The notes beneath the pieces are model-generated. The model was not told the origin of the DNA and did not search any database. It saw nothing but the letters and a program-made list of their open reading frames with translations. Of a stretch of DNA of 64,000 nucleotides, positions 3,861-41,724 are shown piece after piece. How positions within the stretch are numbered: position 1 is the first letter of the stretch; every line of letters starts with the position of its first letter. The translations under genes and the position numbers were made by a program. The stretch comes from a virus. Location of the stretch: positions 4,032 through 68,031 of the IMG/VR virus record IMGVR_UViG_3300045988_167796. One strand, given 5' to 3'.

Positions 3861-4271
3861 ATGGAAGTAAGTAAAGAGATTATTGAAGTACTTGATTATA
3901 TTGGTGACAAGTTTGGAATTGCTGTGAATTGGACGGATAAAAACGTCCTTCCATATGTGCAGCAGTTATGTGAGAAATTTATTAAATGGGATATTGCAAC
4001 ATCAGTTTACTGGATTGGATTCGCTATCATATTTGTTATCGCTGGTATTGTGTTAGTAAAATACGGAAAGAAATTTATAAATAAAGCGGAAGATATGGAT
4101 GATATGCATTTTGGTTTAGGAGTTACGTATATTGTTTTAGCAGTTTGTTTATTCGTAATATCTTTTATCATAATTCCATGTCAGATATATGATATTGTTA
4201 AGGATTGTTATATGCCAGAATTAAGATTATATGAATATGCAAAATCATTTATTTCAAATAATACGAGGTAA
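3861..4271 (+). CDS. membrane protein (2-3 predicted TM helices)
   Basis: Hydrophobic stretches WIGFAIIFVIAGIVLV and IVLAVCLFVISFIIIP. Confidence 0.45.
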   Translation: MEVSKEIIEVLDYIGDKFGIAVNWTDKNVLPYVQQLCEKFIKWDIATSVYWIGFAIIFVIAGIVLVKYGKKFINKAEDMDDMHFGLGVTYIVLAVCLFVISFIIIPCQIYDIVKDCYMPELRLYEYAKSFISNNTR

Positions 4272-6078: not shown

Positions 6079-6462
6079 ATGAAAAAGTTAACAAAAGAAC
6101 AGGCAGTTGCAGAGCATAGAAAAATGTGGAACTGGATTGCTGACCAATTAGAAAATGGAAGTACATCCACTGTTGGCTTATTAAAAGAGGAATATTGTAA
6201 AATAAATAAATTTAATTTACTTGAGGATTGTTTTTGTTGTGAATACGCTAGAATGCAAATTAATAATAGTAATTGTAAATCATGTCCGATATTATGGGGA
6301 TCGGAAGATAATACGGATAGATTTTATTGTGAATATGGTAATAACGGAGAAATGAATAAAGGATTATGGTGGATTGCACAAATTTATTCATTTAAACACA
6401 AATATGAAGAAGCGGCTAAAATCGCAAGACAGATTGCTGATTTACCAGAGAGAAAAGATTGA
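6079..6462 (+). CDS. Cys-rich protein, paralogue family member 1 (LTKEEA..H..WN.IA / CCEY...C..CP / IA.LPER)
   Basis: Shares N-terminal, Cys-cluster and C-terminal motifs with 8737-9321 and 9635-10012. ATG at 6079 fits SD gaaagga better than GTG at 6070. Confidence 0.5.
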   Translation: MKKLTKEQAVAEHRKMWNWIADQLENGSTSTVGLLKEEYCKINKFNLLEDCFCCEYARMQINNSNCKSCPILWGSEDNTDRFYCEYGNNGEMNKGLWWIAQIYSFKHKYEEAAKIARQIADLPERKD

Positions 6463-6476
6463 TTGAGGTGATAGTT

Positions 6477-6662
6477 ATGGCAAAAGATAGAGAAACACCA
6501 TGTAAATCATATGTATGTGAAGGAGAATGTAAAAAAGGAAGGGAAGCAGAACATAAAGGGTATTGCCAGAGATGCGATAAATATGTACCGAGAGTGAAAG
6601 AGAGACATATTAATAGGAAGAAACAGGAACTTGAAAAGATTCGGATGAAAGAAATGGAGTGA
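6477..6662 (+). CDS. small zinc-ribbon protein (CKSYVCEGEC...CQRCDKY)
   Basis: SD gaggtga then ATG at 6477. Confidence 0.4.
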   Translation: MAKDRETPCKSYVCEGECKKGREAEHKGYCQRCDKYVPRVKERHINRKKQELEKIRMKEME

Positions 6663-6670
6663 AATAAATA

Positions 6671-6997
6671 ATGTTTAGTGAAGAAAAAGCAAGAAAAATT
6701 GCAGAGGATTTTCTATCTAAAGCGAATCCTACTAACTGGAATGGAGTTGGCAGAAGACCAAAAAATTTTAGTACAGGCATTGTTACGTATAATATTGATT
6801 CTATAAACGGGAATGAATTAGATAGTTCTTTTGAGTATTTAGATGAAGACGAATCTGATATTCCAGGATGGACACATTATTGTGAATTACGTGATAAAGA
6901 AACAGGAGATCTTATGATTCCTTTGCATGGATACGGAATTGATTCTGTGCAGAATCTGGTTGATACAATTATGGATATTTGCTCAGATGAAAATTGA
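6671..6997 (+). CDS. hypothetical protein
   Basis: 108-aa ORF with SD ggagtga. Confidence 0.4.
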   Translation: MFSEEKARKIAEDFLSKANPTNWNGVGRRPKNFSTGIVTYNIDSINGNELDSSFEYLDEDESDIPGWTHYCELRDKETGDLMIPLHGYGIDSVQNLVDTIMDICSDEN

Positions 6998-7014
6998 AGA
7001 AATGGAGTGAAATT

Positions 7015-7197
7015 ATGGAAACTGTAGCTGAGGATATGATCATGTTATTGATTAAAAAGTGCAAATCTAAAAATGTGAAAAAAGGGTTAGAAATTGCATT
7101 GGATATTGTATCAAATTCCGGATACTACAATTATAGTGACTGTAATAATATGACAGAAAAAGAACAATGGAATGAAGTAAAAGAATATTTAAAGTGA
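7015..7197 (+). CDS. hypothetical small protein
   Basis: ATG 7015 after SD ggagtga. The same 14-mer gaaatggagtgaaat also precedes 6671. Confidence 0.35.
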   Translation: METVAEDMIMLLIKKCKSKNVKKGLEIALDIVSNSGYYNYSDCNNMTEKEQWNEVKEYLK

Positions 7198-7381
7198 CGA
7201 GGATATTATATGACAGTTGCAGAATTATATGAATGGGCTAAAGAAAGAGATTTGCTAGATAAGCAGATTGCAAAACACTTTAATTTTAGTATTGCAGATG
7301 TGAATGCTGTTTATTATCTGACAAAAGAAGAAATTATGGATACAGACGGAAGAGTAGTAATTGATTAAGGAGGAACATTTT

Positions 7382-7810
7382 ATGTTAAAAGAAAAATTAA
7401 CAATAGAAAGAAGAAAAGCAGTTTTGTTAACAGTGGACATTTCCGGCAAACATTCTGATGGGAACGAACGGTTAAAAGAATACGCTCTTGCCTGGTTAAA
7501 ACTTACTAATAACGCAAGAGAATATAAAAATATGATCTGGAAGATAGAAAATAATCGTAATAATGATTGGGTATATGTGTGGTGCAACCCTAAATCTGCA
7601 GAAAATATTAAGGACTTTTGCAATCATATTATCAGTTCATATGATTCTACTGCAGATAAAATGAATTACATTGGAAAGGTGATTGATGAAGAAGAAGTTG
7701 AAGTTGGATTTCCTATATATGAATACGAAAGTACATGTGATTCAAATAATCCACAGTGGGAAGAAGATATTGAAAGCTCTATTTCTGATTGGATGTATGT
7801 AATGGAATGA
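7382..7810 (+). CDS. hypothetical protein
   Basis: SD aaggagg, then ATG at 7382. Confidence 0.4.
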   Translation: MLKEKLTIERRKAVLLTVDISGKHSDGNERLKEYALAWLKLTNNAREYKNMIWKIENNRNNDWVYVWCNPKSAENIKDFCNHIISSYDSTADKMNYIGKVIDEEEVEVGFPIYEYESTCDSNNPQWEEDIESSISDWMYVME

Positions 7811-7821
7811 GGTGAATGAAT

Positions 7822-8337
7822 ATGAAATATATGATTAAATGGGATATTGATACAGATGGAGATTTTGGATTTGCAGATTATTACACCAGAGATAGAGAAA
7901 AATATGGACACGATGGCGATGAGAATTATTCTGGAGTTGTATGTTTTAATGATGTGTGTAAGGCAAGAGAATTTTTACGTACAATGTTATCAGATCTTCA
8001 TGTAACAAGCAGTCATTATTGGTTATTGCAGGATATATATGAAAAATTCGAAGCATTAATTTCATTTTGCAATGAAGGAGAGCGTGGATATTGTGATGAA
8101 ACATTTGACGGGAATGCAGAAGGTTATATTAGTGTCGCAATTTTAAAAGATGAAGAAGTAAATAAAGAAGATACACCAGAAGAATACAAATATTATTATG
8201 TATCATACAGCGGAAGCACGATTGTAAGCGCAAGGAATGAAGATGAAGCTTGTGAGCTTGCTGCAGATCAAATTAACTTGGAAGATATAAATGCTTATGA
8301 GACGGATGAAAATGGCTTTTTAATTGATCTTCCATAA
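7822..8337 (+). CDS. hypothetical acidic protein
   Basis: SD gaggtga, then ATG at 7822. Confidence 0.4.
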   Translation: MKYMIKWDIDTDGDFGFADYYTRDREKYGHDGDENYSGVVCFNDVCKAREFLRTMLSDLHVTSSHYWLLQDIYEKFEALISFCNEGERGYCDETFDGNAEGYISVAILKDEEVNKEDTPEEYKYYYVSYSGSTIVSARNEDEACELAADQINLEDINAYETDENGFLIDLP

Positions 8338-8351
8338 CGGAGGTGAATTAC

Positions 8352-8564
8352 ATGACACACGCAATAAAAAACCTGGAGACATATGAACGGACATATTTTG
8401 TACAGGCTGATACATTCGATGAAGCTCGTGAGAAACTTGAGGATGCTATCCAGAATGGAAAAATCAATGGTCCTGAAGAATGCAGTGATACTGAATACAT
8501 TAATGACAGTGAAGGATGGGATCCTGATTACTTTAATGATCCAGTAAATTTAGATTTGAAATAG
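8352..8564 (+). CDS. hypothetical small acidic protein
   Basis: SD ggaggtg, then ATG at 8352. Confidence 0.4.
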   Translation: MTHAIKNLETYERTYFVQADTFDEAREKLEDAIQNGKINGPEECSDTEYINDSEGWDPDYFNDPVNLDLK

Positions 8565-8572
8565 GAGAACTT

Positions 8573-8740
8573 ATGGAAAAATACGTAGATAAACACGGAA
8601 GAGTAGCGGAAGTACACACTGATATAAATGGTAAATGTTTTGCCTATATTAAAGATAAAAGAGAATATTCACCTTTATTCCCTGATAAAAAGAATCTTGT
8701 TAAATGGTTGGTAAGAGAAGGATATGAGGAGGTAGCATGA
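8573..8740 (+). CDS. hypothetical small protein (55 aa, below ORF-track cutoff)
   Basis: SD aggagaac, ATG 8573. Stop overlaps the next start (ATGATG). Confidence 0.35.
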   Translation: MEKYVDKHGRVAEVHTDINGKCFAYIKDKREYSPLFPDKKNLVKWLVREGYEEVA

Positions 8741-9321
8741 TGAGAGAGTATGATTTTGAGGTGATTATTTGTAGTGAAAAATGTGATGGGTGTGTGACTG
8801 TTGAAGCAAGTGATAAAGACGATGCTATAAATAAAGCAATAAAATATGTTGGTGATAAATTATACGAAGCTCTTCCTGAATTAGATATTGAATATGGAGT
8901 AAATTTTATTGAAGATGATGAATACAAAAAAGAAGAGAACAAGATTAAAAACGATAAAGATGTTCTTACAAAAGAAGAAGCTGTTAGACTTCATCGTGAG
9001 TTATGGAATAAGATTGCAGAATTAATTAAAGAAAATGGCATTGAAAAATATGACTACAATATTGACAAAATAAAAAAATCTGCATTAGAAGAATTAGGAT
9101 ATGATCCTAAAAATATTTATGAGTATTGTTGGTGCTGCGAATATAATAATGAACATGGTGGATATCGATGCAAGAGATGCCCTGTAGAGTGGGATAATAT
9201 AATATGTTCAGAATCAGAATTTGGAGAGTTTTGGTATGCTGTAGAAGACGAAGAGAGTGAAGAACTTGCTTATAATATTGCTATTAAAATAGCAAATTTA
9301 CCAGAAAGAGAGGATGTTTAA
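8737..9321 (+). CDS. Cys-rich protein, paralogue family member 2 (with ~80-aa N-terminal extension)
   Basis: C-terminal 110 aa align with members 1 and 3 (LTKEEAVRLHRELWNKIAELI, CWCCEY..C.RCPVEW, IANLPERED). SD gaggagg. Confidence 0.5.
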   Translation: MMREYDFEVIICSEKCDGCVTVEASDKDDAINKAIKYVGDKLYEALPELDIEYGVNFIEDDEYKKEENKIKNDKDVLTKEEAVRLHRELWNKIAELIKENGIEKYDYNIDKIKKSALEELGYDPKNIYEYCWCCEYNNEHGGYRCKRCPVEWDNIICSESEFGEFWYAVEDEESEELAYNIAIKIANLPEREDV

Positions 9322-9323
9322 TT

Positions 9324-9629
9324 ATGAAGAAGATTATTAATGGAAAAAAATATGATACAGATACTGCGAAACTCATGGGTACATATACAAACGGAAGATC
9401 GTATTCTGATTTAGAATTTATGATGAGAGAATTATATAAGAAAAGAACAGGGGAATTCTTCTTGTATAATACTGGTGGTCCAATGAGTGTGATGGCCGTA
9501 TACAACGGAAATAGTATTAGTGGATCAGAAGAGATTGTTCCAGTTACTGAGGAAGAAGCAAAAGAATGGGCTGAGGAATGGTTAAGTGCTGATAAATACG
9601 AGATAATTTTCGGAGAAGTGGAGGAATGA
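9324..9629 (+). CDS. hypothetical protein
   Basis: 101-aa ORF with TAATTATGA coupling to the upstream gene. Confidence 0.4.
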   Translation: MKKIINGKKYDTDTAKLMGTYTNGRSYSDLEFMMRELYKKRTGEFFLYNTGGPMSVMAVYNGNSISGSEEIVPVTEEEAKEWAEEWLSADKYEIIFGEVEE

Positions 9630-9634
9630 TTAAA

Positions 9635-10012
9635 ATGACAAGAAGAGAAGCATACGAAAAACATAAGGCGTTGTGGAATGAAATTGCAAAGATGATTGAT
9701 AAAGGGATTAAATATAATAATCCAGAGACATACAAATCTGAAGCGTTAGAAAGATTAGGGTACTACGATTATACTTTTAATAACTGTTATGCATGCGAAG
9801 TTACAAAATGTTGTAGCGATTGTTTAGTTGTTTGGAAATTTGCTACTTGCATGTATCAAGGATCAGAATATATGAATTTTATTTATGAAGTGGAACATAA
9901 TAATTATGATTCTGCAAAAGAATATGCAAGGAAAATCGCAAATCTTCCACTTAGAGAAGGATTTGATATAGACAAAGATATTTATGAAGATGATTATGAG
10001 GTGATTATATGA
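9635..10012 (+). CDS. Cys-rich protein, paralogue family member 3
   Basis: MTRREAYEKHKALWNEIAKMI...CYACEV..CCSDC..VW...IANLPLREG. ATGA overlap with the RT start. Confidence 0.5.
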   Translation: MTRREAYEKHKALWNEIAKMIDKGIKYNNPETYKSEALERLGYYDYTFNNCYACEVTKCCSDCLVVWKFATCMYQGSEYMNFIYEVEHNNYDSAKEYARKIANLPLREGFDIDKDIYEDDYEVII

Positions 10013-11274
10013 AAGATATTTTGCTGCAAAAATTTTTTGAATCAGAAAGATGGGAAAAGGCAATTGAAACTGGTGTCGGAAAAGGGATTGATAAAGGTGA
10101 GCTTCGGCAATTATGTTCTCCGGAAATAAGAGCTGCAATGTATAACTGTATCATTTCTGATAATTATGAAATCGCTCCGCCTCATCAGGCTAAAATTCCA
10201 AAAGACAATGGTGACTTCCGTATTGTATATGTAAATGAAAATGTAGATAGAGTGTTCTTATCTATTGTAAATGATATGTTGTTTGAAATGTTCCCGGAAA
10301 TGGTACATAAAAGATGCAAATCCTATCAGTCCGGTATTGGATGTGGGAAAATTGTACAGGAAGTATCAAGGACGATTTGCAATACAAATGGTGATGTGAT
10401 TGGATGGAAGTCAGATCTTAGCAAGTACTTTGATTCAGTTCCAATCCAGTTTATTGATAGAGTATTTGATACAATAGAAAGCAAAGTCGGCAAATCGAAA
10501 ATAATTGATGTAGTACGTAAATATTATCATACAGATTTATGTTTTGATGTAGATGGAAATTTAATTGAACATTATCAGTCATTAAAACAGGGATGTGCAG
10601 TTGCTAGTTTTCTGGCAGATGCTGTACTTTATGATATTGATGATATGCTTAGTAAATTAGATGGATATTATGTAAGATATTCTGATGACTGTCTATTCGT
10701 TGGTAACGATTATGAAGATGCTATGATAATTATGCAGTATATGCTTGCTGATATGGAGATGACTCTTAATCCAAAGAAAGTTGAGTATCTGCATGCTGAT
10801 AAATGGTTCAAATTTCTTGGATTTAACATTAAAGGATCTATGATATCACTTTCGAAACAACGCGTGAAATCTTTTCAAAAAGAAATCTGTAATAGAAGTA
10901 TAAATAAAAAGGATATTACACAACAAAAAGCGTTGAATAGTATTAATAGATATTTGTATATTGGAGATGGAAGATTTTCATGGGCAACATCAGTTCTTCC
11001 TATTATTAATGTACAGAAAGATATTGATACATTAAATGATTATGTAATGGATTGTATAAGAGCATGTAATACCGGAGGAAAAAGAATCGGAGGACTTGGA
11101 AGTGTAAATGATAGAAATGATTTTACGATTATAAGAGGAACTGGAAGAAATGTAAAAGCGAATAAAAAGAAAACAGAAAAGAAAATTGATGGGTATTATA
11201 GTATCCGATGTATGCAGAAAGTAATTCTTACAAACAGAGCTGCTTATGACACTATTGTGAGAAGCTTGGCTTAA
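10009..11274 (+). CDS. reverse transcriptase (retron / group II / Abi-like, not DGR-type)
   Basis: All RT motifs present: IPKDNGDFRIVYV (motifs 1-2), SDLSKYFDSVP (A), LKQGCAVASFLADAVL (B'), YVRYSDDCLFVG (C), LNPKKVEY (D), FLGFNI (E). Confidence 0.75.
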   Translation: MKDILLQKFFESERWEKAIETGVGKGIDKGELRQLCSPEIRAAMYNCIISDNYEIAPPHQAKIPKDNGDFRIVYVNENVDRVFLSIVNDMLFEMFPEMVHKRCKSYQSGIGCGKIVQEVSRTICNTNGDVIGWKSDLSKYFDSVPIQFIDRVFDTIESKVGKSKIIDVVRKYYHTDLCFDVDGNLIEHYQSLKQGCAVASFLADAVLYDIDDMLSKLDGYYVRYSDDCLFVGNDYEDAMIIMQYMLADMEMTLNPKKVEYLHADKWFKFLGFNIKGSMISLSKQRVKSFQKEICNRSINKKDITQQKALNSINRYLYIGDGRFSWATSVLPIINVQKDIDTLNDYVMDCIRACNTGGKRIGGLGSVNDRNDFTIIRGTGRNVKANKKKTEKKIDGYYSIRCMQKVILTNRAAYDTIVRSLA

Positions 11275-11292: not shown

Positions 11293-12066
11293 AATGATGC
11301 AAACACATGCATAATATACAAGATCAATTCAATTCAATGATGCTGCTATTACTCCTGGAACAGAATCTAGGAGGATCAGTATCCTGATCCTCCTATATCC
11401 TTTATCCAGGATAATTGCAGCTTAATATGAAACTGTTAAAGAGATGTGTCAAATTGATTGAGTATATTTTTTTTGTACGTATTTAAATCACAATGCAGTG
11501 ACAGGTTTACAATGTAGTTATATTTAATACGGCGGATAATAGCAGGAATATCATCCTGCATATTCCGCCATATATGAAACAAATAAAGGTATGCATTAAT
11601 ACTAATGAGTAAACCAAAACGTATTACAACGTAGACATACAAGGTAATTCAATTCACAATGCGGGTAATATGGAAAGCTGCTCTTCAGGTATCCCTGAAG
11701 AAGCTGCCTCCAATTACCTGCGCATAAGATGAAGCAGATAAAAAGATGTAACGAAATTATTGAGTATGTCAAAAAATGTAGTGCAACATAAGTATACAAG
11801 GTTAGTTAATTCAATCTTGCAGGTAATAAAGATTCATGGTGCCTCCATCTATCTTCGGAGGCACCATGAATCTTATTACCCGTATAATATGAAACTTATA
11901 AAGAAATGCACCATACTAAATGAGTATACTAAAAACACACAGCGCAGTGTTGGTTGACAAGGTATTCAATATTCAATATAGATCCATCAATTCATCTCTG
12001 ATTCAGGACCCGCCGGTTTATCTACCGGCTGATCCTGAATCCATTGATGACCAATGGATCTATTAT
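11293..12066 (+). repeat. array of five ~150-bp degenerate tandem units (A 11293-11477, B 11478-11612, C 11613-11791, D 11792-11957, E 11958-12066)
   Basis: Each unit has a conserved leader (acaaggtaattcaat-like), a unique long hairpin, and a conserved segment ATATGAAAC.TATAAAGAGATG...ATTGAGTAT. All five hairpin loops contain TATC. Hairpins: A 11370-11393 (10-bp perfect stem), B 11531-11569, C about 11660-11725, D 11819-11882 (12-bp perfect core 11835-11868), E 11980-12060. Confidence 0.7.
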
Positions 12067-12624
12067 ATGAAACATATAAAGAGATGCGTCGAGAATGCAG
12101 AGTCAATTAAGAATACAATGAAAGGGGTTATTATTTTGAGTGTTATGACAATATATGAAGAATTATTAGATCTTGTACAATGTGGGAAAAGATTTAAGAT
12201 TGATTTTAAAAAGAGAAATATGCGTGTTGGAAACGAATGGCTTATAAAGGACGGAGAATGGGATCTTGAAAGAGAGTTGATTAAGTCTGAATATAATAAT
12301 CCGGTGGATAGCCTTGTAAATGATTGGTGTCTAGCTAAAATAAGTCTATTATATATGGATTATAAATATTCTACTCCAAGTGAAAAAAGCGAATTAAGAA
12401 GACAAAAGAATTATTTCTATGCTTTACCTTCTGAAAAAATGTCAGATAAAGAATTGATAACTGGGAAGGATAGAGAATATGCAAGAGCTGCATTAGAAGG
12501 ATTTATATTATGTGTTATTTTAGCAGGATGGTTAACGTGGGATGAACATAAAATGGGAAAATGGTTCTATCGGGGAAAAGATAAGGATCTAATTATTCTT
12601 AGAGAATGGATTGAAGAAAAATAA
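12067..12624 (+). CDS. hypothetical protein (MKHIKRCVENAESIKN...); its 5' end is unit E of the upstream array
   Basis: ORF continues from the conserved ATG of unit E. Units A-D carry truncated copies of the same N-terminus. Alternative starts at TTG 12136 or ATG 12143 after SD aaagggg. Confidence 0.45.
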   Translation: MKHIKRCVENAESIKNTMKGVIILSVMTIYEELLDLVQCGKRFKIDFKKRNMRVGNEWLIKDGEWDLERELIKSEYNNPVDSLVNDWCLAKISLLYMDYKYSTPSEKSELRRQKNYFYALPSEKMSDKELITGKDREYARAALEGFILCVILAGWLTWDEHKMGKWFYRGKDKDLIILREWIEEK

Positions 12625-12668: not shown

Positions 12669-13619
12669 ATGATGAAAAACAGAACAAAGAGAGAAGAAAC
12701 TATGAAAAATGCAGGTATTAATACAGGTAAATATTTTAGTATTCAGTTACCTGAAGGATTAAAGCCAGGATCTACAGTCAGTATTATTATTAATGAAAAT
12801 GGAGAAGCAGTTTTATCTAATGATAATTCTGTACATAAACACGACTTTGATGATATTGAAAATCAGATTTTTGCAAATGGATATGTAAAGAATACAAAGC
12901 TGCATAGACGTTGGGTCATGGCCCAGATGTTTCGGATGTTAAATTATGAAAGGAATCAGTTTGATAAAGGATATGATGCATGTTTAAGAAATTGCTATCC
13001 TTATCAGTATCAGTTTAAAATGATGCTTGAAGAAGTTAGAGTATTGTCGAAATTAGAATGTTCTGATAAACAGGCATATGAAGAAAGATCACATTTCTTT
13101 GATCAATATGTTATTATTAAAACATGCAATGATTATTTAGAAAAATTAAGAAGATATATTGCTGGATTAAAAATTAGACACTGCAAAGGAATTGAATATG
13201 TAAGAATTTCTGGAAAAGATATTTTTATCAGTGATTTGAACAACAAAGTATATATGCCTTTAGAAAATATGATTCGTAATATTAAATATTCCATTAATTA
13301 TAATGCATTATATTGTAATCTTCGAAGATTTATTAATAAAATGATCAAACTACCTGACAATACTCCAAAATGCAAAGAATGGATTGATGCGTATAAAGGC
13401 GCAGGTAGTTATTATACGTTGATGAATATGGTTAAATTCCATAATTGTTTTATCATCAATCAGTATACCGGAGAAGTATTGCGTGGATGTGATTCTGTAA
13501 AATACTTAGAGGATATGCTTTACTTATACCATGATCAGTATTGGAGAATGTTTGCTTTATTGAAACAGACTATTAAAGATAATAATTTTGATTTTTATAA
13601 AAGAATGAGTGAAATTTAA
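12669..13619 (+). CDS. hypothetical protein
   Basis: 316-aa ORF with SD aaaaggagaatga. Confidence 0.45.
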   Translation: MMKNRTKREETMKNAGINTGKYFSIQLPEGLKPGSTVSIIINENGEAVLSNDNSVHKHDFDDIENQIFANGYVKNTKLHRRWVMAQMFRMLNYERNQFDKGYDACLRNCYPYQYQFKMMLEEVRVLSKLECSDKQAYEERSHFFDQYVIIKTCNDYLEKLRRYIAGLKIRHCKGIEYVRISGKDIFISDLNNKVYMPLENMIRNIKYSINYNALYCNLRRFINKMIKLPDNTPKCKEWIDAYKGAGSYYTLMNMVKFHNCFIINQYTGEVLRGCDSVKYLEDMLYLYHDQYWRMFALLKQTIKDNNFDFYKRMSEI

Positions 13620-14837: not shown

Positions 14838-14844
14838 CTAACAA

Positions 14845-40670: not shown

Positions 40671-40762
40671 AGGGCATTCGCCAAGCGGTAAGGCACATGA
40701 CTTTGACTCATGCATAATTCATTAGAAATGGTGATTCCTGGGTTCGAATCCCAGATGCCCTG
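40671..40762 (+). tRNA. atypical tRNA-like gene, anticodon UUG (Gln-like) with ~25-nt variable region
   Basis: Hand fold: 7-bp acceptor agggcat/atgccct, 3-bp D stem, anticodon stem catga/tcatg with loop cuUUGac, T arm ctggg-ttcgaat-cccag. The variable region is unusually long. Confidence 0.45.
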
Positions 40763-40856
40763 TTCAGAAGTATAAATTTCTGAAAGTATGTAAACGGTTT
40801 CCAATATGTTTTACTGTCAGCGTTTTTGGAGTAGTAAGCTTGAATAAACTCCATAT

Positions 40857-40940
40857 GCGGGTATGGTGGAATAGGCAGACACAGCGGACTTAAAATCCGC
40901 TGGTAGAAATACCGTGTGAGTTCAAGTCTCACTATCCGCA
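40857..40940 (+). tRNA. tRNA-Leu(UAA), type II
   Basis: Acceptor gcgggta/tatccgc (one G-U), 3-bp D stem, anticodon stem gcgga/tccgc with loop cuUAAaa, variable-arm hairpin ggta-gaaa-tacc, T arm gtgag-ttcaagt-ctcac. Confidence 0.75.
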
Positions 40941-41320
40941 TTAGGAACTAGAATTACTCGAAGGCCAAGAGTTAAGTTAGTTCTGAGGTTAACCTACATA
41001 TTTGAATAAATTGTATCGAAAATATAGCTTCAAGAGTAACATATAGCAGAAATTGCAGCGATATAAATAGATCAAAGTATTCATATAGACAACTAAGAAG
41101 ATTCGAATGTGAGTTGTAGGAACTCCGGTTGATGGTGACGGAGCGGAACCATCTGATCAATTTATATAGATGAATCGTCCTGTAGGAAATATCAGCAATG
41201 AGGGTGGGATGTAGGGAAAGTTGAAAGCCGATCACTTTCGTGTAGTTGCCAGGGCAAATGAAAATTAATGGGAACTATGATGTATTCGTATTTAGTTGCG
41301 GTAAAAGTACATCATAGCAT

Positions 41321-41406
41321 ACGCCCTTAGCTCAGTAGGTTAGAGCAGCGGCCTTATAAGCCGTGTTAAATGCGAAAGCGCCTGGGTTCGAGTCCCAGAG
41401 GGCGTA
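41321..41406 (+). tRNA. atypical tRNA-like gene, anticodon UAU (Ile-like) with 17-nt variable arm
   Basis: Acceptor acgccct/agggcgt, U8A9, D arm gctc-agtaggtta-gagc, anticodon stem gcggc/gccgt with loop cuUAUaa, variable gttaaatgcgaaagcgc, T arm ctggg-ttcgagt-cccag. Confidence 0.5.
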
Positions 41407-41658
41407 TTAGATGGCAACAGGTCTATGTGAAAATGTGTGATTATAACGCATTGAACGGAAGTCTGAAGTATGGTAGACAGCATATAATCTTGAATTGACT
41501 TTTGTACGTTTCAATAGCAAACTCAGTCAAAGTAAAAATGTAACAGACGACTTTGTGGCAATTGTTATCATAATCCTGCGTAGCTGCAGTATCGTAGGTC
41601 ATGCATGTAAAAAATATAAGGTTGCCGATGACTTCATATATCAGTAGTGGAATCGGAA

Positions 41659-41724
41659 GTGGCATTAGCTCAAATGGGAGAGCACTGTTCACAGAGGTTA
41701 ATGGTTCGAATCCATTATGCCACA
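41659..41724 (+). pseudogene. truncated tRNA-like element lacking a proper anticodon arm (66 nt)
   Basis: Perfect acceptor gtggcat/atgccac, D arm gctc-aaatggga-gagc and T arm aatgg-ttcgaat-ccatt. Only 16 nt lie between the D and T arms. Confidence 0.4.

Follow-up and report, generated by a model that had tools for sequence, protein, structure and literature searches.

In diversity-generating retroelements (DGRs), Avd is a small helical-bundle protein encoded just upstream of the reverse transcriptase (RT). Other small helical proteins, such as the zinc-binding anti-sigma (ZAS) proteins with their HxxxCxxC motif and the WhiB-like iron–sulfur (Fe–S) proteins, bind metal through Cys and His residues and act by binding another protein. 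Two CxxC pairs placed about 12 residues apart in a loop represent the standard signature and spacing of a structural Zn(Cys)4 site. A system formed around an RT of the UG27 class in gut phages was described by Mestre et al. (2022; PMC9226505) and was dissected in the September 2026 Minerva preprint (bioRxiv 10.64898/2026.09.22.753630), where, according to its passages on reconstitution, the required proteins are RT, sORF and bORF. In the present work we analysed three open reading frames (ORFs) for Cys-rich proteins, cys1, cys2 and cys3, that precede a UG27 RT gene in a 64,000-nt stretch of viral DNA (positions 4,032 to 68,031 of IMG/VR record IMGVR_UViG_3300045988_167796), hereafter called the window.

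The window shares with the described UG27 system the RT, a five-unit non-coding RNA (ncRNA) array, the sORF and the bORF; the Cys-rich family is not among the three proteins described in the passages cited. A term search of the two sources found no passage on a Cys-rich upstream protein in the text it covered, and a literature search on UG27 accessory proteins and zinc turned up nothing relevant. On balance, we favour the view that the three ORFs encode free-standing, metal-scaffolded accessory proteins of phage early and replication regions and that they are not part of the UG27 retroelement.

The Cys-rich genes and their family

The window is phage-like, has a low GC content (~31%) and carries its plausible genes (long ORFs) on the plus strand, among them the three Cys-rich ORFs as the earlier note on this DNA had them (Table 1). 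In BLASTP comparisons with composition adjustment, cys1 and cys2 (E 9e-14, 34% identity over 131 columns), cys2 and cys3 (E 5e-14, 39% identity) and cys1 and cys3 (E 2e-9, 25% identity) align over the whole ~120-aa domain, which in cys2 is formed by the C-terminal ~118 aa. The similarity is therefore not limited to low-complexity segments; such a limitation is what the earlier note had named as fatal to its own claim. The family hidden Markov model (HMM) matches all three copies with E-values of 1e-40 to 1e-48, and no DNA-level repeat joining the three genes was found in a repeat search of the window. The genome-mates of each copy rank 90–253 in the BLAST lists, behind more than 90 proteins of other phages; since each copy has closer relatives elsewhere, the window contains members of three old subfamilies. 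Judged by their sequences, cys1, cys2 and cys3 are genuine, anciently diverged copies of one Cys-rich family. This agrees with the old duplications proposed in the earlier note, whose figure of about 30–40% protein identity caught the divergence but has to be corrected to 25–39%.

Chance, compositional bias or a DNA repeat as the source of the similarity is ruled out by the E-values of 2e-9 to 5e-14 over the full domain. An artefact of this kind has a negligible probability in our estimate, since the low GC (31%) of the window and nothing else speaks for it, against the E-values of the family HMM, the thousands of homologues with the same invariant residues and the lack of a DNA repeat.

The profile of the three paralogues matched 662 proteins at 90% clustering, none of which (0/662) contains a Pfam domain, and a profile of 109 members extended the family to 3,923 clusters at 50% identity, 1,292 of them at E ≤ 1e-10. 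The proteins are ~110–140 aa long. The profile libraries searched were Pfam-A 2025, PHROGs v4, NCBIfam 20 and PADLOC 2.0: no family of Pfam or PHROGs matched the 109 members consistently, and the three window copies had no match in NCBIfam or PADLOC. The best library match was phrog_5780, itself of unknown function, at E 8e-5 and over 49 residues of cys2 only, while a single GenBank phage record carries a member, annotated as 'hypothetical'. The earlier note had not recognised the family, and neither these libraries nor the search for a specific structural relative identified it; by profile comparison it is a large and so far undescribed family.

Among the 109 homologues, W17, K36, C51, C54, C66, C69, C84, I119 and L122 are invariant, and T5, A9, H13, R14, N18, I20, A21, Y56, P70 and W73, together with a C-terminal set of A116, A120, N121, P123 and E124, are conserved to at least 90%. 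The five Cys thus reach 100% and His13 reaches 99%; a sixth Cys, C53, is conserved to 75%. The family motifs are HRxxWNxIA and IANLPER, and the N-terminal, Cys-cluster and C-terminal motifs cited in the earlier note are real and kept family-wide. The subfamily of cys1 follows the pattern MxLTKExAIxEHRKMWNWIA...CFCCEY...CxxCP..W...C...AAxIARQIANLPER. The ten longest homologues owe their extra length to tandem domain duplication or to additional Cys-rich N-termini; no Pfam domain that would indicate fusion to a known domain was found in these ten.

In the window, cys1 is preceded by the ribosome-binding site AAAGGA 10 nt before its ATG and has orthologues of 53–65% identity in loci L071 and L258 of our collection. 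For cys3, which is identical to protein P0002, the more plausible of the two starts is 9635 (MTRREA), which follows GGAGG by ~11 nt, and not 9626.

Genomic context and linkage to UG27 reverse transcriptases

The relation between the family and the UG27 RTs was sampled from both sides. Starting from the RT, three IMG/VR scans provided ~104 distinct UG27 contigs with RTs 49–71% identical to that of the window. A family member adjoins the RT in none of them (0/~104), and in four it is located 8–9 kb upstream. The DUF932 backbone gene is kept in 38/52 RT-first loci, and the genes found directly upstream of the RT elsewhere encode an acidic 132-aa protein, a 210-aa protein, an HNH-like protein, an orthologue of w9324 or the N-terminal domain of cys2 alone. 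Starting from the family, 115 loci (18 viral, 80 from metagenomes and 17 from bacterial genomes) yielded a UG27 RT within 10 kb in three cases, all of one lineage, with the RT ~8 kb away and never adjacent; ~97% of the family-first loci have no RT within this distance. Conserved co-occurrence with the UG27 RT across lineages, which would mark a component of the UG27 system, is not a property of the Cys-rich family.

These counts (0/~104 adjacent and 3/115 within 10 kb) do not bear out the special relation to the RT implied by the earlier note. A common family unlinked to RTs, which that note had named as the finding that would undo its idea, is largely what was observed, given the 3,923 clusters and the two samples. 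General linkage to RTs in other genomes is not seen, but a residual, lineage-restricted adjacency persists in the window's own backbone group and in locus L078. The paralogues do not bracket the RT either: all three are upstream of it, and it is followed by the ncRNA array of the UG27 system and by two accessory genes unrelated to the family.

The typical neighbours in family-first loci are genes for DnaB, AAA_24, DHH/DHHA1, CCA-adding enzyme, Dam and C5 methylases, RecA, exonuclease and RNase H. Clustering of 724 neighbouring ORFs from 67 dereplicated loci revealed no recurrent neighbour above 14/67 and only lineage-specific synteny. At least two copies of the family are present in 13/67 of these loci, some single proteins having two domains, and tandem or near-tandem arrays reach seven copies in L125 (608–3547) and four in L007 (10004–13766). 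The phages carrying the family are gut phages, mainly of Clostridia and Bacteroides, with hosts that include Ruminococcus, Eubacterium and Bacteroides. Within gut-phage genomes, its members are free-standing accessory genes located in the regions for early functions, replication and DNA modification.

Two single records may be added here. The IMG/VR jumbo contig 3300010163_000002 (249 kb) has at least six family copies at three sites. A 499-kb scaffold of Ruminococcus sp. AM36-2AA (L261; QTYB01000001.1, 360911–381330) carries a family member with a UG27 RT 8.4 kb downstream; the locus, probably a prophage, comes from an isolate genome and so ties a related lineage to a Clostridia host known by name.

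The cases of true adjacency were found through exact-protein look-ups of the nearest relatives of the window copies. In L071–L074 a family member is directly upstream of a UG27 RT 92–95% identical to that of the window, with an extra tandem copy, and in L259 a cys2-type gene directly precedes an RT of 87% identity. In L258 the RT next to the family member is only 54% identical, on a syntenic backbone (DUF932 87% identical) that contains all three paralogues. The orthologues of cys3 directly upstream of the RT have 59–65% identity in L071–L074 and 45% in L258. Finally, the 218-kb contig L078 has the gene order cys2-type, cys3-type, RT, with RT, sORF and bORF, respectively, 42%, 32% and 34% identical to those of the window.

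In the neighbour-joining tree of 37 RT clusters, three distinct branches contain RTs with a family member next to them, and each of these has sister lineages without the family. The closest outside relatives of cys3 and of the RT-proximal copy of L078 belong to RT-less phages, within replication and DNA-modification modules in which DnaB precedes them and DNA methylases follow after a few genes, and no relative of the L078 RT above ~43% identity was found in IMG/VR. Which small gene occupies the slot directly upstream of the UG27 RT varies with the phage backbone; in the window's group it is a family member. The simplest reading is that the adjacency follows the phage backbone, on which UG27 cassettes diverge or are exchanged at a fixed slot, and that it reflects no functional requirement.

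Several observations weigh against this reading and against the independence of the family from the RT. The family member is always RT-proximal in the window's backbone group (L071–L074, L258 and L259; RT identity 54–95%), and the same order of cys2-type gene, cys3-type gene and RT recurs in the distant L078; such recurrent adjacency is more than a single coincidence. Transcription may also join the genes in question. The motif AATAATATTAAAAA is present in the window in 17 intergenic copies (16 on the plus strand) against ~1 expected, and the copy at 14844 is directly upstream of a promoter-like TTGACA-17-TAAAAT, so that the motif probably represents a phage promoter-associated element. Because no copy occurs between 4837 and 14844, the Cys genes are probably co-transcribed with the UG27 system, and all of these may belong to a single transcription unit together with DUF932.

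All this, together with the ATGA overlap of the cys3 stop and the RT start (10009–10012), speaks in favour of the family being a lineage-specific extra component in a subset of UG27 systems, with adjacency and coupling being functional; such a protein could, for example, act as a regulator of the RT complex, or its ligand could be the short hairpin cDNAs or the units of the ncRNA array. We regard this explanation as quite unlikely. A more specific version, in which we likewise place little credence, is that in one group of large gut phages the tandem pair of cys2-type and cys3-type genes directly before the RT provides a fourth (and fifth) UG27 component, a metal-dependent factor that would regulate the RT complex or bind its short hairpin cDNAs, kept from an ancestor shared with L078 and lost in most other UG27 lineages. 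The two samples argue against such a role, as none of the ~104 other UG27 contigs has an adjacent member and ~97% of the family-first loci are free of RTs within 10 kb. The RTs of the adjacent cases are polyphyletic on their tree, and adjacency tracks the phage backbone instead; cys3 and the RT-proximal copy of L078 have their nearest relatives in RT-less phages, flanked by genes for DnaB and DNA methylases; and the reported reconstitution, in the passages cited, needed RT, sORF and bORF only (bioRxiv 10.64898/2026.09.22.753630). The overlap, which the earlier note had taken as translational coupling, does exist but is neither distinctive nor conserved: further 4-nt overlaps are found in the same operon at 2173, 8737 and 9626 (ATG starts) and at 6459 and 6994 (TTG starts), and in the relatives L071, L074 and L258 the corresponding junction is a gap of 9, 13 and 33 nt. 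We thus prefer to consider the three genes as free-standing accessories of the phage.

Like Avd, the protein is a small (~125 aa) helical bundle encoded immediately before an RT, which could suggest an Avd-like accessory protein of a DGR. Such an identity is very improbable and was rejected, because the RT is of the UG27 class and the window contains no long imperfect direct repeat (template repeat/variable repeat, TR/VR) pair. The family also has no sequence or specific fold match to Avd and, unlike it, is mostly unlinked to RTs.

Fold, predicted metal site and possible role

The AlphaFold2 model of cys1 obtained from the family alignment (predicted local distance difference test, pLDDT, 92.9; predicted template modelling score, pTM, 0.87) is a five-helix bundle (helices 6–25, 32–42, 52–61, 96–105 and 109–120) with a Cys-rich loop of ~35 residues inserted between helices 3 and 4. 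The loop holds two invariant CxxC pairs, C51/C54 and C66/C69, 11–12 residues apart, and the fifth invariant Cys, C84; the first pair is placed at the N-terminus of a helix, and the loop has little regular structure. The face of helix 1 with H13 and W17 and the IANLPER tail may be packed against this loop in the model, the sole structural hint being an isolated DSSP bridge residue at position 124; bridge residues are also assigned at 71, 86 and 92. The search for a specific structural relative of this fold found none.

In all 109 sequences, four invariant Cys form two CxxC pairs, as in the Cys4 zinc modules of the zinc-ribbon and treble-clef kind in small phage and regulatory proteins, and the Cys cluster is predicted to hold a structural metal, most likely as Zn(Cys)4. 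The likeness to these modules consists in the two invariant CxxC knuckles of the loop; the family differs in that the pairs are located inside a five-helix bundle and not in a stand-alone finger, and in the extra invariant Cys and His. No significant sequence or structure match of the family to any zinc-finger family was obtained, and the family profile, compared with the sequences in the PDB, matched only zinc modules (C1, PHD and RING), none of them significantly (E 0.1–0.7).

To the points already raised against the preferred reading it should be added that the cofactor could alternatively be Fe–S, or that there could be two sites, because a single Zn(Cys)4 site would leave some of the five invariant Cys and the invariant His unused. 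A regulator that responds to redox state or oxygen through an Fe–S cluster, WhiB-like in its logic and acting in phages of strict anaerobes, would make use of these residues and of C53 (75%), and the hosts (Ruminococcus, Eubacterium and Bacteroides) are indeed gut anaerobes. We nevertheless hold it to be unlikely, as two CxxC pairs ~12 residues apart in a loop have the classic spacing of structural zinc, and a match to Pfam Whib or to an Fe–S family was seen in 0/109 members. The same profile result (Whib 0/109) led us to reject a WhiB-like identity as such. A ZAS anti-sigma identity was rejected as well, since the HxxxCxxC motif is missing, the sole conserved His, H13, precedes C51 by 38 residues and zf-HC2 matches 0/109 members.

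With regard to function, the near-neutral charge of cys1 (by manual residue count) disfavours mimicry of DNA as well as nucleic-acid binding by a strongly basic protein. The conserved residues would form a scaffold around the structural metal, and the variable linkers (residues 26–50 and 74–95) would carry the target specificity. Very tentatively, the protein may be envisaged as a metal-stabilised protein-binding adaptor made together with the early or DNA-metabolism genes. Its target might be a host or a phage factor, with a part in host takeover, anti-defence or the control of DNA transactions, and the paralogues might be specialised for different targets. ZAS and WhiB-like proteins have the kind of mechanism that is proposed here. 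This adaptor role has no specific homologue in its favour, and the genomic neighbourhoods say only that there is no fixed partner.

Neighbouring features of the window and significance

Table 1. Location of the Cys-rich genes, the UG27 system and other features in the window
Feature	Position	Strand	Characteristics
cys1	6079–6462	+	127 aa; member of the commonest subfamily; family HMM E 4e-46
cys2	8737–9321	+	194 aa, two domains; Cys-rich family domain at residues 77–194 (8965–9321)
w9324	9324–9629	+	conserved 101-aa gene between cys2 and cys3, unrelated to the Cys-rich family
cys3	9635–10012	+	125 aa (128 aa with start 9626); directly upstream of RT
RT, UG27 class	10009–11274	+	PADLOC RT_UG27, E 6e-217, residues 1–420 against profile 1–420 of 420
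UG27 ncRNA array	11320–12106	+	five ~150-nt units; repeat families D7 and D10
sORF, cluster 346	12145–12624	+	PADLOC RTas346, E 5e-49
bORF, cluster 337	12669–13619	+	PADLOC RTas337, E 1e-104
AATAATATTAAAAA sites (examples)	989, 2725, 4837, 14844, 19209, 25650, 27664, 30782, 35386, 40326, 59096		

According to the profile matches, the window holds a complete, already known UG27 system directly downstream of cys3 (Table 1). The RT also matches Pfam RVT_1 (E 6e-21). Each unit of the ncRNA array consists of a long hairpin followed by a TATGAAAC.TATAAAGA.ATG box, with fold z-scores of −2.3 to −7.9; the array was matched to UG27 by its architecture only and corresponds to the array in the portion of the preprint cited (bioRxiv 10.64898/2026.09.22.753630). 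The start of the sORF is probably near 12145, because RTas346 covers only residues 76–233 of the mechanical ORF 11920–12624, inside which ncRNA unit 5 is located.

Two observations concern the UG27 system in other genomes. In Bacteroides phage BS-TP1 (L257; PQ571274.1, 79351–80613), gp79, recorded as 'tail protein', is a UG27 RT 64% identical to that of the window and is followed by sORF-like and bORF-like genes. The record is mis-annotated and the phage is cultured, so this isolate is a cultivable model for UG27. In many related loci of the L029–L070 type (e.g., L029, 11288–16500), RT and sORF are ~5 kb apart, versus 0.75–1 kb in the window, which suggests very long ncRNA arrays or inserted genes.

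The first 76 residues of cys2 (8737–8964; EYDFEVII...ALPELDIEY) form a separate small domain. It is a gene of its own in L078 (7725–7973) and in L085 (3660–3830), in the latter directly upstream of the RT, and the C-terminus of a different protein in L029 (8515–8904), while the orthologues P0004, P0005, P0007, P0008, P0014 and P0022 have the same fusion as cys2; this domain is a mobile small module. The gene w9324 has an orthologue in 40/52 related UG27 loci without the Cys-rich family, and in L086 this orthologue is directly upstream of the RT.

Elsewhere in the window, ARAGORN identified a cluster of tRNA genes at 40671–41724 (Gln-TTG, Leu-TAA and Ile-TAT), with a fourth tRNA match in Rfam at 41659–41724; tRNA gene clusters are typical of large phages.

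For the biology of UG27 the value of these results is mainly negative: the Cys-rich genes beside this RT should not be taken as a part of the retroelement. The eye-catching connection with the RT is for the most part peculiar to a single phage backbone; the RT system is already known, and it is the family that is uncharacterised. The multi-copy, tandem and fast-diverging habit of the family is typical of host-interaction genes. As it is large, can be folded with confidence and is absent from every library searched, the family lends itself well to a new domain entry and to functional screens of the 'dark matter' of gut phages.

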